Assembly (NCBI GenBank): GCA_030429175.1
Contig: JAUIDD010000004.1
Coordinates: 26,349 to 90,348, forward strand
DNA from: Gammaproteobacteria bacterium
GTDB lineage: Bacteria > Pseudomonadota > Gammaproteobacteria > Coxiellales > Coxiellaceae
Direction: 5' to 3'
DNA length: 64,000 nucleotides
The notes under the pieces are model-generated. The model was not told the DNA's origin. It did no database searches and saw only the letters and a list, made by a program, of their open reading frames with translations. The position numbers were made by a program, and so were the translations under genes. Of this stretch, positions 29,429 to 49,174 are shown piece after piece. How positions within the stretch are numbered: the first letter of the stretch is position 1; every line of letters starts with the position of its first letter.

Positions 29429-29510
29429 AATAGAGACTCTCTCACAATACGGGCTTTAAAACGTCTTTCTGTTAAAAACAAATTGAGTTTTTAATAATTA
29501 TAAAACAACC

Positions 29511-30371
29511 TCACGGGTTATTACTAACAACGCGCACAGGTTTTTCTGGTGACTCTTTTTTCGGCACTTTAGAGAACATCATTGATAAGTTATACTTAAC
29601 GTCAAGTTTATCAGAGCCAAATTTATCAGCGAGTGTTTTTTCATGATCTATATTCAACTTATCAATTTGCTCGCTGGTCAAATTAGAATTACCACTAACG
29701 CCTGAAGTAGTCTTGAAAAAGTCTACCCATTCGCGCTGACTAACAAATTTTTGATCTATAAACACCTGTAATTCCACATCAGTAAAACTTTCTCTCATCA
29801 ACTGATTAAGATATTCATACTCACGATCAAACTTCCGCTCAATTGGAAGCTTCCAAGTTGGATCATATTTTTGAATTACCTTTGTTGTAACATCTAAGGC
29901 ATTTTCTGGTTTAAGCTCAGGATCATAATGAGTGATAATAAATGTAGCATTAGGTTTGCTTATTCGTTTGATTTCTTGAATTGTTTTTTCTTGATCAAAC
30001 CAATGCCAGCATCGCCCAGCAATAATAAGGTCAAAAGAATTTTCAGGTAATGCGATGTCTTCTGCCGGCGTGCAACAATAAGAAATGTTTGTTATACCCA
30101 TTTCTTTGTCTCGTTTAACTCCAGCTTCCAACATATTCTGCGCACAATCTGCAGCAGTTATTAAACAGTCTGGCTCCAACTGAGCAATTCTGTTTGCAAT
30201 CAATCCTGTACCAGCACCAAGATCTAAAACAGTTTTGCCAGGAGCAATAAGCCCTCTTTTTTTAAGTTGCTCAAAAAAACTTTCAGGAAATTGTTTTCGA
30301 TGTTTGTCATACTCTTCAGCTACTTTTCCGTAGTCAAAATTTCTTTCTTCACTTTTATCTGCACGACTCAT
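29511..30371 (-). CDS. class I SAM-dependent methyltransferase
   Basis: Motif I is VLDLGAGTGL, and motifs post-I/II are DLIIAGRCWHWF. The start is set at MSRADKSE (GGAG RBS) rather than the upstream ATG at 30470. Confidence 0.8.
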   Translation of the reverse strand: MSRADKSEERNFDYGKVAEEYDKHRKQFPESFFEQLKKRGLIAPGKTVLDLGAGTGLIANRIAQLEPDCLITAADCAQNMLEAGVKRDKEMGITNISYCCTPAEDIALPENSFDLIIAGRCWHWFDQEKTIQEIKRISKPNATFIITHYDPELKPENALDVTTKVIQKYDPTWKLPIERKFDREYEYLNQLMRESFTDVELQVFIDQKFVSQREWVDFFKTTSGVSGNSNLTSEQIDKLNIDHEKTLADKFGSDKLDVKYNLSMMFSKVPKKESPEKPVRVVSNNP

Positions 30372-30682
30372 TGTAGTCTCCTTTATTGATAGGGGTTTAT
30401 CCTTTCTAGCTTTAGATGTTACTCTTAAGCTTGTTTCTGTAAATCTATCTATGGCATGTCTCGAAAGCATAACAAACCTAGTTTGGTAAAATTTACTACG
30501 AGCTAGAAAAAAAATATTGAGCCCCCAAGGTTATGATGATTTAACATCGCATATACTAATCTGATTCACTTTGCTTATCAATACTCACGCTATCTTGACA
30601 GATGCCAGTTTATCGTTTAGCTTCCCTATTTACCTTTAGCAGCAATATCACTAAATAATTGTCAGCTTAATCAGGAGTGCAT

Positions 30683-31144
30683 ATGAGCATTACACTTGAT
30701 GAATATACTTCACAACTAAACTCACTAGGAAAAAGCAAATGTCTAGGTATTTTTTTTAGAAATTCATCCCTACGTACTCTAACACAAAATTGTCTTGCTT
30801 ATGCTTCTATCAACACACCCGATGAAATGGAAGAAAAAGATAAAATTTCTCGACTGAACGCATTTTTAATTTCTGCTTACAATAAATACCCTCGCCTAAG
30901 AAAACACCTAAAAAAACTATTGAGTCAGACTCTAGAAATTGAAAAAGCCAAATGGGATGAGTACAAACTAGGCAACTTAAGATTACAAGCGTCACTATTC
31001 CCAGCATATGTGAAATGTGATCTTCCTTCGCCAAGACCAGAAAAAATAATTCAAGATCCCATTATCACTTACCTAAAAAATCACCCAAAACTAAAAATAT
31101 CGGATATTCATATTGACAATAAACGCAAAGGAGCTTTTGTGTGA
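30683..31144 (+). CDS. hypothetical protein (orphan), translationally coupled to panB
   Basis: An AGGAG RBS lies 5 nt before the ATG at 30683. About 153 aa. The stop overlaps the panB GTG start (GTGTGA). Confidence 0.55.
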   Translation: MSITLDEYTSQLNSLGKSKCLGIFFRNSSLRTLTQNCLAYASINTPDEMEEKDKISRLNAFLISAYNKYPRLRKHLKKLLSQTLEIEKAKWDEYKLGNLRLQASLFPAYVKCDLPSPRPEKIIQDPIITYLKNHPKLKISDIHIDNKRKGAFV

Positions 31145-47259: not shown

Positions 47260-47471
47260 AACAATTACTCCTTGATATTTTTACCTCAAATATATTATAT
47301 ACTGTTTATTAGACACAAGATCCAGTATTATCTGAGACTACACTCCAGATTAAAGAAGTGGAGAATAACATAGAAAAAATGTTATCACAATATCGCTTTT
47401 TTTAAGTTGCCATACCAAAATGATTTAGGTTAACCTCAATTCTGGATAAATGTTCAAAGCAACAATAGTAG

Positions 47472-49001
47472 CTAATGGTTTAATAGGTTAAAAACTTTAG
47501 AATCTTCTTCAACTACGTTGGAGTCTGTTGACAATTGCGTTTTAAAGAGACTACAAAAGTTACCTATAAAGCCTGACTGCTGTCTATTATCTTCAGGCTT
47601 TTCATGCACTTTAACAACATTAAACCATTCATTTAAAAGGGCTGTAGCACAGCCCAGCAATCCAAAGCACCGCCCAACAAGCAGGCCTTCTGGCCCCAAA
47701 CCACATGTAAAGGCCAAAAATAAGCCTATCGGCATGCCTGCAAACCATATTCCACATAGTGTAACCATCAAAGGAAATACAGTTTTGTAAAAACCTCCCA
47801 AACCTCCAGCGGCTACACGCATTGTAGCATCAAAAAAATTACTGACACAACATATCAAAAAAAAGTTTTTTACAATCATTACGGTATGCTCATACTCCTT
47901 ATCATTTTCTTCTAAAAATAAATTAGTTATAGCCTGGTGTATTGACATAAATAAAATTAGACTCAGCAATGATAGGGTAGATGTCAAAAAGTAGCCCATA
48001 TAACCAATATTTCTGACATTTAATCCATTATTCTGAGAGATATCGGAGCTTGTCATAATACTGACTATAGTTGCTATCACAGAGTTTAGCTCAGCAAATA
48101 ATGACATAAATTGTGAAGTAATTTGCATAGCAATAAGTGGGGTTTTTCCAAAGCCACCAACCAAGGTTGTCAAAGCAAACATATATGATGCTTCTATACC
48201 AACCCCAAAACCTAGTGGGACACCGACTATAAATAATTTCTCTAACACCTTGTGCCTTAAATCATGGGTTATTTTTAAAAGATTGTATTTTTTAAAGTTG
48301 GGATGTTTTAAAAAATACAATGTCATTCCGATAAAACTTAGCCAATTTGAAATACAGGCTGCGTAAGCAATACCTCTAACACCATATCCGCCTATCGCCA
48401 TTACATAGCTTAAGTAATAACCTAGGGTACTATTTATCACGCTTATAATAAGTATAAGTTGCGTTTGACGCAGTCCAACAGCAAAAAATTCGTTTGATTT
48501 AAGCAGTGAAATTGCAGGTAGGGCGCCCATATAAATATAGAGATAATCTGATGCTATTTTAGCTACTGACTCTGTTTGTCCAGATGCGATAAAAATCGGC
48601 TTAATAATAGCAAAACAAGTTATAAAGGGTATTGATTCAATTAAAGCTTGGCACCATGATTGCTGTAAAATAATACCAATATCATTGGTTTTTTTATGTT
48701 TTCTAGCAATAATAATACCAGTAGAACCTAGAGACCCTTTAATAGTACCAACACTCAATAGTTGTGATATCGATATCAAAGCACTTGCTGCTAGCGCATC
48801 ACTTCCAAGCTGACGAAAAATGAGTGTTCTAAAAATACCAACGCTTTCAATAACAATCCCATTTAAAGCATATGGAATAGATTGCTGTAGCATATCTTTA
48901 AGTATGTCTTTTTGTGATCGAAATTTTAAACTTACAGTTGATCTTTTGTTTAATGCCATATTTAGGTCATCCTCATCCTTCTGAGTCTTAGTCTCTATCA
49001 T
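47472..49001 (-). CDS. MATE-family efflux transporter
   Basis: 509 aa with about 12 TM segments in a two-fold repeat pattern. It contains GVRGIAYAACISNW-type motifs and has a GAGGAG RBS upstream. Confidence 0.65.
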   Translation of the reverse strand: MIETKTQKDEDDLNMALNKRSTVSLKFRSQKDILKDMLQQSIPYALNGIVIESVGIFRTLIFRQLGSDALAASALISISQLLSVGTIKGSLGSTGIIIARKHKKTNDIGIILQQSWCQALIESIPFITCFAIIKPIFIASGQTESVAKIASDYLYIYMGALPAISLLKSNEFFAVGLRQTQLILIISVINSTLGYYLSYVMAIGGYGVRGIAYAACISNWLSFIGMTLYFLKHPNFKKYNLLKITHDLRHKVLEKLFIVGVPLGFGVGIEASYMFALTTLVGGFGKTPLIAMQITSQFMSLFAELNSVIATIVSIMTSSDISQNNGLNVRNIGYMGYFLTSTLSLLSLILFMSIHQAITNLFLEENDKEYEHTVMIVKNFFLICCVSNFFDATMRVAAGGLGGFYKTVFPLMVTLCGIWFAGMPIGLFLAFTCGLGPEGLLVGRCFGLLGCATALLNEWFNVVKVHEKPEDNRQQSGFIGNFCSLFKTQLSTDSNVVEEDSKVFNLLNH

Positions 49002-49174
49002 AGCGCTCTCCTCATTGCTACAGAGTATAGTACAGTCAAGCTCTTTCTTACTCTAAATAATGCACCGATACATGTCACCTGTATACTGATTGTATGTTGA
49101 ATCTACAGTTAGTCAGCTAATTTATATGCTGAGAGAACAAGTTCAAATACTCACTTATTGATAATATATAATTT

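Follow-up and report, generated by a model that had tools for sequence, protein, structure and literature searches.

What separates yggS from proC in a Coxiellaceae genome, how did it come to lie there, and what might it make? These questions are raised by a 64,000-nucleotide stretch of DNA (hereafter the window; contig JAUIDD010000004.1, positions 26,349–90,348, of assembly GCA_030429175.1), in which the conserved yggS–proC–yggT block is interrupted at 29429–49174 by 14 genes. At the centre of this island is a fusion protein joining an adenylation (A), a carrier (T) and an α-oxoamine synthase (AONS) domain, referred to as A-T-AONS. It is accompanied by a short-chain dehydrogenase/reductase (SDR), a second enzyme of the nonribosomal peptide synthetase (NRPS)-like type with a terminal thioesterase (TE) domain (A-T-TE), an orphan protein of 401 residues, and a pair consisting of a saccharopine-dehydrogenase-family protein (Sacchrp_dh) and an aldehyde dehydrogenase (ALDH). 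We consider it probable that the segment is a horizontally acquired biosynthetic cluster whose product would be an amino-ketone or amino-alcohol derived from α-aminoadipate, by an NRPS-like, AONS-based pathway that is rare and apparently uncharacterised. An earlier reading of the sequence alone had proposed an island encoding an undescribed small-molecule pathway, and what is added to it here is an empty site in relatives, a smaller recurring mobile core in at least four other genomes, the aminoadipate prediction, and a wider A-T-AONS/SDR family.

The insertion between yggS and proC

Scanning genome contigs with PckA as the query yielded 80 loci (ProC alone as the query yielded none), against which all proteins of the window were run by tblastn. 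The nearest relatives by PckA are metagenome-assembled genomes (MAGs) of the Coxiellaceae/Legionellales and Candidatus Paracoxiella, at 61–71% identity, and yggS follows pckA in 12 related loci. The host is thus an uncultured, Legionellales-like bacterium for which sequenced genomes offer no closely related species. Comparison of the yggS–proC junction in these relatives revealed an empty site in three Legionellales/Coxiellaceae loci (L008, L010 and L013), where the order ruvX–algH / pckA–yggS–proC–yggT–trxA–rho is kept and yggS and proC are 24–31 bp apart; the two genes are also adjacent in L016 and L043, and separated by 420 bp in L011. No homologue of an island protein was found by tblastn in any of the 80 loci. 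With the flanks of relatives intact without the island genes, and with cluster homologues at unrelated loci (see below), the proposed insertion into a conserved yggS–proC–yggT block is upheld. The matching locus of Candidatus Paracoxiella (L011) is located at the extreme end of its complete chromosome record.

The right-hand junction is not an assembly artefact, since an independent Logan assembly (run ERR3428547), with an identical PckA, has yggS followed 173 bp on by a 507-aa gene, reproducing the same yggS-to-MATE junction. The site is not fully rigid, and could be variable or subject to recurrent integration: in a related gammaproteobacterial MAG (L009, 12247–17418) a different 5.3-kb insert, consisting of three AAA_14/DUF4143 ATPase genes and queC, occupies the yggS–proC junction, and in L007 the junction region is rearranged.

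Base composition sets the island apart from its surroundings. Its G+C content (GC) is 36.3%, as compared with 39.2% and 39.1% in the flanks, and no 19.7-kb stretch of the window is poorer in GC. Gene by gene, both GC (Mann–Whitney p=0.0009) and GC at third codon positions (GC3; p=0.003) are lower in the island than in the flanks. The A+T-richness that had been called clear by eye is real, but its size is modest, at about 3 GC points. As to how the segment entered, ARAGORN found no tRNA at the island, searches for Rfam families and flanking repeats gave no match there, neither junction sequence contains a target duplication, and Pfam scans of the island proteins found no integrase or transposase; that integrase, tRNA and flanking repeats are lacking agrees with what had been seen by eye.

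Homologous clusters and their conserved core

The full A-T-AONS architecture is rare, with about 17 occurrences among 5.8 billion proteins. Nine of these are AT-rich and Legionellales-like, at 42–100% identity, and the others, from Nocardia, Nocardiopsis and soil metagenomes, stand at 33–37%. In JGI metagenomes, a scan for A-T-AONS brought up many unrelated Lys2-like adenylation domains but just three full-length relatives, all of them distant.

Homologues of the cluster occur in four other AT-rich genomes, with protein identities of 55–87% (lower for the L006 proteins considered below), and none of them lies between yggS and proC. The carriers are found under GCA_054681755.1, GCA_964466595.1, ERZ25072490 and SRR21358815. 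In L002 (MAG Tsb005) the orphan, A-T-AONS, SDR, free TE, A-T-TE, PanB, methyltransferase, 275-aa protein and MFS pump have MerR and a Na/H exchanger as neighbours. L004 holds PanB, A-T-TE, the orphan, A-T-AONS and SDR, and has IS240, DDE_Tnp_1 and Tn3 transposases on its flanks. L005 (GCA_964466595.1) has A-T-AONS, methyltransferase, MFS pump, PanB, A-T-TE, free TE, orphan and SDR beside U-box and ankyrin genes, and L006 has A-T-TE, A-T, condensation (C), EamA, orphan, Sacchrp_dh, ALDH, A-T-AONS and SDR genes beside valS. Common to all five copies, the window included, are A-T-AONS, SDR, the orphan and A-T-TE, joined by PanB in four of the five; free TE, methyltransferase and MFS pump are frequent. 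The Sacchrp_dh–ALDH pair is shared only by the window and L006, and a 155-aa orphan, a 365-aa membrane protein and the MATE pump, for which tblastn found no homologue in L002–L006, are private to the window copy. The conserved functional unit is about 5–8 genes, not 14.

A related gene group of more distant origin is found on a high-GC (67.5%) soil-metagenome contig (L088, 9174–17753), where a phosphopantetheinyl transferase (PPTase), an A-T-AONS with the specificity code DPRCFVMRAK, an A-T-TE, a separate Aminotran_1_2 gene and an SDR repeat this logic in a compact and distantly related form. Amino-acid exporters of the LysE or EamA type adjoin the A-T-AONS/SDR pair in L087 (Nocardia), L004 and L006, a neighbourhood that would fit a basic, amino-acid-like product.

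Beside the cluster in L005, a YcaO-domain gene, a 355-aa partner and an MFS pump (4710–9586) form a possible second small biosynthetic locus; a HipA toxin, and U-box/ankyrin-repeat proteins typical of Legionellales effectors, are also found near it.

Because its copies differ in location and gene order, because one of them is flanked by transposases, and because relatives have empty sites, the cluster can be described as mobile. An ancestral cluster at this junction, lost from the sampled relatives, is by comparison highly improbable. Such a history would sit well with the lack of an integrase, tRNA or direct repeat, and PckA identity to even the nearest of the sampled relatives, which are distant, does not exceed 71%, but yggS lies directly beside proC in five of them (L008, L010, L013, L016 and L043) and close to it in L011, the homologous clusters sit elsewhere, and GC and GC3 of the island are below those of the flanks.

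The distribution of genes among the copies also bears on the objection that there is no single unit at all, and that a lysine-catabolic pair and some transporters merely adjoin, in a variable region, an NRPS-like operon to which they are unrelated. Consistent with this objection, Sacchrp_dh and ALDH are missing from L002, L004 and L005, three genes are private to the window copy, the island genes are found on both strands, and the yggS–proC junction varies in some relatives, as the L009 insert illustrates. Nevertheless, we regard it as distinctly unlikely: in L006 the Sacchrp_dh, ALDH, A-T-AONS and SDR genes are consecutive and co-oriented, although only 42–53% identical to the window proteins, the A-domain code independently calls for aminoadipate, and the lowered GC is common to the whole segment.

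α-Aminoadipate as the predicted substrate

For the acquired cluster, the substrate of A-T-AONS can be named, as a prediction, as α-aminoadipate, which the Sacchrp_dh-family enzyme and the ALDH would form from lysine, because the equivalog assignment of the ALDH, the structure closest to the Sacchrp_dh-family protein and the Lys2-like code of A-T-AONS converge upon it. The best NCBIfam match of the A-T part is to the Lys2 model TIGR03443 (408.6 bits, profile positions 263–965), and this part falls just below the cut-off for generic amino-acid adenylation. The enzyme as a whole is not a Lys2, as the full-length TIGR03443 cut-off is 1030 bits and no NAD_binding_4/reductase domain was found in A-T-AONS. 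The ten specificity residues were extracted by alignment to GrsA-PheA, for which the canonical DAWTIAAICK was recovered as a check. The resulting code, DPRCFVLRAK, is identical in the window enzyme, in all eight orthologues and in two of three Nocardia/Nocardiopsis homologues, and agrees at 8–9 of 10 positions with the codes of proteins that pass the TIGR03443 cut-off (DPRHFVMRAK in P0089, DPRHLVMRAK in P0067 and DPRCFVMRSK in P0047). In Lys2 it is the C6 carboxyl of aminoadipate that becomes activated, and A-T-AONS would accordingly be expected to activate this distal carboxyl as well.

The ALDH scores 758.4 bits with NF050084 (cut-off 730), as against 298.6 bits for the next ALDH family, and so passes the equivalog cut-off for L-piperideine-6-carboxylate (P6C) dehydrogenase (ALDH7). 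Its orthologue in L006, with 51% identity, lies directly upstream of A-T-AONS. In the longest open reading frame (ORF) of this gene, 536 aa, the start is separated by just 14 nt from the MFS ORF, which diverges from it; alignments to the family set in at residue 65, and the Logan gene call gives a 505-aa product; the true start is probably near 37200, leaving a divergent promoter region of ~100 nt. The Sacchrp_dh-family protein matched none of the NCBIfam models, and its best PDB match is 3abi (PH1688, E 7.6e-20), which we take to be the L-lysine 6-dehydrogenase of Pyrococcus. Its orthologue in L006 (43% identity) is encoded directly upstream of ALDH and A-T-AONS. On this similarity and gene context, the protein may be an L-lysine 6-dehydrogenase producing aminoadipate semialdehyde/P6C.

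The AONS domain and its reductase partner

The AONS domain (window 40427–41500) has the fold-type I pyridoxal phosphate (PLP) domain and the significant similarity to BioF, serine palmitoyltransferase (SPT) and KBL that place it in the α-oxoamine synthase family. Its scores with the bioF (280.8 bits), SPT (275) and KBL (267) models are all below the full-length equivalog cut-offs (426 for bioF), the nearest solved structure is serine palmitoyltransferase (198 bits), and cysteate-C-fatty acyltransferase is also among the PDB matches. With motif positions assigned by reference to BioF and SPT, the PLP lysine (GTLSKA) and the stacking histidine (CHQS) are kept in 15 of 15 aligned family members. 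The DEAHS/DDAHG motif, which contains the histidine that binds O3' of PLP, reads DEACS here; Cys or Ser replaces this histidine in every one of the 15 members, with the Asp kept, and may define a mechanistic variant. The carrier serine of A-T-AONS (GFTS) is conserved in the family alignment, and its counterpart in A-T-TE (GGTS) is present.

An SDR gene directly follows A-T-AONS in six loci (the window, L002, L004, L006, L087 and the metagenomic L092; 46–84% identity) that span three very different GC backgrounds, and stands two genes downstream of it in L088. The SDR may reduce the α-aminoketone formed by A-T-AONS, or its cyclic imine. Its recurrence after A-T-AONS mirrors the pairing of SPT with ketosphinganine reductase and implies that the ketone is turned into an amino alcohol, or else that a 6-substituted pipecolate arises by reduction of the cyclic imine. 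The carrier-protein chemistry of amino-ketone/amino-alcohol type suggested by the sequence-only reading gains support from this succession of A-T-AONS and SDR, kept across phyla; Pfam and NCBIfam scans of the island proteins likewise bear out its remark that Condensation, ketosynthase and thioester-reductase domains are missing.

This pairing also speaks to the possibility of a diffusible signal, either an aminoketone dimer (pyrazine or dihydropyrazine) or an α-hydroxyketone resembling the LqsA/CqsA autoinducers of Legionella and Vibrio. The AONS domain matches the autoinducer synthase model NF005526, though at 175 bits this is far below the cut-off of 428. α-Aminoketones do dimerise spontaneously as a matter of general chemistry, and Legionella NRPS-like clusters have been proposed as signal makers (PMC5126622); the conserved downstream SDR, however, speaks for reduction of the ketone, and pyrazines would then be kept from forming. 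Moreover, there is no sensor kinase or regulator gene in the island, the nearby two-component system being part of the backbone, and we hold a signalling role to be rather improbable.

A wider and decidedly more tentative view returns to the aminoadipate-derived amino-ketone or amino-alcohol as a product class. The A-T-AONS/SDR pair might embody a cross-phylum logic for extending aminoadipate at C6 into new polar diamino-hydroxy or 6-substituted pipecolate amino acids, and the product of the Legionellales mobile cluster could be an antimetabolite directed at the host or at competitors, acting for example on the biotin/KAPA, lysine or pantothenate pathways.

A-T-TE, PanB and the accessory proteins

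The adenylation domain of A-T-TE exceeds the TIGR01733 cut-off (361 vs 317 bits) and retains D235. Four cluster copies share its code, DLYNAGGIWK, without variation. The code resembles Cys-/Gly-type codes (DLYN...IWK) but has small residues at 299, 301 and 322; the L088 enzyme has VDCTASFADK, of the β-amino-acid type. A-T-TE is predicted to load an α-amino acid and to release or transfer it via its TE domain. Given the secure identity and strong conservation of PanB (below), one may speculate that this acid carries a gem-dimethyl group of PanB origin and is thus pantoate's amino analogue. The TE domain (31999–32860) and the free TE share 53% protein identity and 73% identity over 132 nt of DNA, both have an intact catalytic Ser/Asp/His, and the same combination of TE domain and free TE is found in L002 and L005. 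One or the other probably serves either to release the aminoacyl unit or to join it to the amine or alcohol that derives from aminoadipate.

PanB passes both of its cut-offs (TIGR00222, 329.5 vs 207.6 bits; NF001452, 355.8 vs 272). No other protein of the cluster is as well conserved: it is 87%, 82% and 74% identical to the PanB encoded beside A-T-TE in L002, L004 and L005. The presence of an equivalog-level PanB invites the idea of a vitamin-type metabolite or antimetabolite, such as an analogue of pantothenate or of the biotin precursor KAPA. PanB would then provide a pantoyl-type unit, and A-T-AONS, acting as a fused BioW–BioF, would link alanine to a C6/C7 diacid. Several observations lend themselves to it: the bioF match of the AONS domain; the existence of natural BioW–BioF fusions (PMC9544090); the β-amino-acid-type code of the L088 A-T-TE, β-alanine being the partner of pantoate in pantothenate; and the feeding of biotin synthesis by lysine catabolism in α-proteobacteria (PMC7645780). 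Yet the code of A-T-AONS is like that of Lys2 and unlike a pimelate ligase, the fold family of BioW is a different one, and the bioF score is below its cut-off and equalled by that of SPT. No bioA, bioD, bioB, panC or panD is present in the island, and a rare, mobile cluster with drug-type efflux pumps would be atypical for cofactor synthesis. On balance this role is unlikely.

Among the remaining proteins, orthologues of the methyltransferase are found in L002 (67% identity) and L005 (61%), and homologues of the MFS pump in the same loci (72% and 42%, respectively). The 275-aa protein had been labelled mitochondrial-carrier-like; the Mito_carr hit is present, but it is borderline (22.4 bits vs a cut-off of 22.3, over the whole protein) and no single repeat passes. 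Carriers of this family have three tandem repeats of ~100 aa with the signature P-x-[DE]-x-x-[KR]; in the 275-aa protein three degenerate P-x-x-x-x-[KRNQ] motifs occur at residues 38, 122 and 211, a homologue with 68% identity is encoded in L002, and a search of the PDB found no sequence relative.

The 401-residue orphan

The orphan accompanies A-T-AONS in every Legionellales-type cluster, its stop overlapping the A-T-AONS start in the window. It has only five close homologues, and each one whose neighbourhood was examined sits in a homologous cluster. A profile search extended the family to 754 distant representative clusters at E<=1e-3, mostly 430–450 aa long; no Pfam match was obtained for the eight representatives scanned, and a profile search of the PDB with the family gave nothing below E 0.4. 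Members of the cluster-associated clade are set apart by a C-S-H-x-H motif, and a distant member, in L089, has two amidohydrolase genes and csrA as neighbours. A scan of JGI metagenomes for the orphan found none, and a further word-index protein search with the orphan alignment returned 6 proteins, adding little.

An AlphaFold2 (AF2) model of the orphan from a 35-sequence alignment reached a pLDDT of 88 and a pTM of 0.87 (a model from 5 sequences, with a pLDDT of 48.6, was discarded). Its Foldseek comparison with the PDB gave weak matches alone, to cNMP-binding/CRP β-barrels, with a TM-score (TMq) of <=0.27 and E >=4.6e-3, and these were not accepted as a functional assignment.

A proposed pathway

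The genes described above can be arranged into a plausible route. The saccharopine-dehydrogenase-family enzyme would oxidise the ε-amine of L-lysine to give aminoadipate semialdehyde/P6C, and the ALDH7-type P6C dehydrogenase, whose assignment is at equivalog level, would convert this to L-2-aminoadipate. As its code suggests, the Lys2-type A domain of A-T-AONS would then activate the distal (C6) carboxyl and load its own carrier domain. The fused PLP-dependent AONS domain, judging from its family, would catalyse a decarboxylative Claisen condensation of the thioester with an amino acid to yield a 2,7-diamino-6-oxo acid. Reduction by the SDR, either of the ketone or of the cyclic imine into which the 2-amino group could draw it, would yield a vicinal amino alcohol or else a pipecolate substituted at C6. 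In an elaboration of Legionellales type, A-T-TE would load an α-amino acid, to be coupled or released by the TE domain or the free TE. The methyltransferase and the orphan presumably act somewhere in this pathway, and the MFS and MATE pumps may export the product.

A number of points weigh against this reading, or at least against its details. No dependable rule is known to us by which the amino-acid partner of the AONS domain could be read from its sequence. Specificity codes are predictions of a substrate and no proof of it, and the lysine 6-dehydrogenase assignment rests on a match of moderate strength together with gene context. Neither Sacchrp_dh nor ALDH occurs within 10 kb of the clusters in L002, L004 and L005, so that the supply module is not universal. 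With DEACS in place of DEAHS, the chemistry could deviate from the textbook AONS reaction. No PPTase gene was found in the island (no ACPS/Sfp-type domain among its proteins), while L088 has one beside A-T-AONS. The roles given to PanB, the methyltransferase and the orphan, and the A-T-TE substrate, are guesses, and the insertion carries no mobility gene or repeat.

The claim that the pathway is undescribed stands within the literature searched, in which coverage was thin for subscription journals: for aminoadipate with AONS, NRPS-like enzymes with AONS, and PanB in gene clusters, no characterised cluster with this gene set was found.

Gene content of the island and its surroundings

The inventory in Table 1 is based on an ORF listing and on Pfam and NCBIfam scans of the window proteins, which returned each of the 14 genes first recognised by eye, in place and with its domains. 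Promoter and terminator scans of the island performed no better than on shuffled sequence and were not used for operon calls. A defence system or prophage was considered and rejected, there being no such gene in the segment.

Table 1. Genes of the island and of its immediate flanks, in window coordinates
Feature	Position	Strand	Evidence and remarks
yggT	28053–28619	-	Left flank
proC	28607–29428	-	Pfam P5CR_dimer and F420_oxidored; left boundary of the insertion, host backbone, outside the cluster
Class I S-adenosylmethionine (SAM)-dependent methyltransferase, UbiE/BioC-like	29511–30470	-	Pfam Methyltransf_31/11/25; NCBIfam matches all below cut-offs
155-aa orphan	30677–31144	+	No Pfam or NCBIfam match; 4-nt overlap with panB start
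PanB, 3-methyl-2-oxobutanoate (ketopantoate) hydroxymethyltransferase	31141–32016	+	TIGR00222, NF001452
NRPS-like A-T-TE	31999–34659	-	Pfam AMP-binding, PP-binding, Thioesterase; TIGR01733
275-aa protein, possibly a degenerate mitochondrial-carrier-like transporter	34867–35694	+	Borderline Pfam Mito_carr
DHA2-family MFS efflux pump	35696–37093	-	TIGR00711, 240.7 bits vs cut-off 230.2
ALDH7-type L-piperideine-6-carboxylate (aminoadipate semialdehyde) dehydrogenase	37107–38717	+	NF050084 equivalog
Free type II-like thioesterase	38732–39628	-	Pfam Thioesterase; paralogue of the A-T-TE TE domain
SDR	39664–40449	-	Pfam adh_short_C2, 218.9 bits
A-T-AONS fusion	40427–43534	-	Pfam AMP-binding, PP-binding, Aminotran_1_2 (134.5 bits)
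Orphan, 401 aa from conserved Met (433 aa for longest ORF)	43531–44736	-	No Pfam, NCBIfam or PDB sequence match
365-aa predicted membrane protein	44969–46066	+	Hydrophobic segments; no family match (Pfam, NCBIfam)
Saccharopine-dehydrogenase-family oxidoreductase	46102–47259	-	Pfam Sacchrp_dh_NADP and Sacchrp_dh_C
MATE-family efflux pump	47472–49001	-	Pfam MatE, 64 bits; TIGR00797, 129 bits, below cut-off 147
yggS	49175–49825	-	Pfam Ala_racemase_N; right boundary of the insertion, host backbone, outside the cluster
pckA	49812–51344	-	Right flank

The backbone of the window runs from a two-component system (24379–26092, outside the island) through rho, trxA, yggT and proC to the island, and continues with yggS, pckA, an algH-like gene, ruvX, pyrB, dnaA and gyrB. 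The island is ~4.3 kb from dnaA (53455–54861), and gyrB lies at 58065–60491. Two ORFs between dnaA and gyrB (55353–56468 and 56540–57646) are presumably dnaN and recF, and the window thus spans the region beside the chromosomal replication origin. A 913-aa ORF directly after gyrB (60629–63370) matched no Pfam family at E<=1e-5.

Significance and comparison with known systems

Hardly anything has been explored of the natural products that Legionellales, or other bacteria with an obligate or facultative intracellular life, can make; legioliulin, legiobactin and legionellol are the only ones with known structures of which we are aware. The present cluster, inserted a few kb from dnaA into a core region that is rigid in other respects, offers a concrete and testable route from lysine through aminoadipate and an amino-ketone to an amino-alcohol, for an architecture catalogued in 2013 without a product. 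Should the substrate prediction hold true, it would add a new use of α-aminoadipate beside lysine synthesis and β-lactams, and a new AONS variant that could be useful in biocatalysis. The 401-aa orphan, which in Legionellales-type clusters invariably goes with this chemistry, stands for a family of at least 754 sequence clusters that has neither a Pfam model nor a structural relative in the PDB.

Fusions in which a tethered acyl group is passed to an AONS domain have precedents in SxtA of saxitoxin, RedL and PigH/RedN of the prodiginines, and BioW–BioF. These load acetate- or malonate-derived, prolyl or pimeloyl units, and none is reported with aminoadipate, or together with A-T-TE, PanB and the 401-aa orphan. 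The A-CP-AOS architecture (CP, carrier protein; AOS, α-oxoamine synthase) was listed in a 2013 survey for Microscilla, Blastopirellula and Nocardia, with its product given as unknown (PMC3870968). LqsA and CqsA, members of the AONS superfamily that are present in Legionella and relatives, differ in being stand-alone enzymes that use acyl-coenzyme A (acyl-CoA) and have no adenylation or carrier domain.

Closer parallels are found for the individual stages. As in SPT with 3-ketodihydrosphingosine reductase (KDSR), and in CapB/CapC of capnine synthesis, an AONS enzyme would make an α-aminoketone by decarboxylative Claisen condensation and a dedicated SDR would convert it into a vicinal amino alcohol; in contrast to SPT and CapB, the donor in the window would be an amino-diacid on a fused carrier, activated in the manner of Lys2, instead of a fatty acyl-CoA or acyl carrier protein (ACP) thioester, and the product would be polar and not a lipid. 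Lys2, the fungal α-aminoadipate reductase, is the closest family for the A and carrier domains and has a code nearly the same, whereas A-T-AONS is without the thioester reductase and the N-terminal region of Lys2 and hence is no member of that family. The clusters of cephamycin and other β-lactams contain lat and pcd, whose products carry out an in-cluster, two-step conversion of lysine to α-aminoadipate that ends with P6C dehydrogenase. The window shares with them a dedicated supply of aminoadipate ending in this same enzyme, but its first step appears to be Sacchrp_dh-like, not a lysine ε-aminotransferase, and the C6 of aminoadipate would be used for a carbon–carbon bond and not a peptide bond. 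Taken by its sequences, the cluster would combine the logic of SPT/KDSR, Lys2 and lat/pcd, yet it belongs to none of them.

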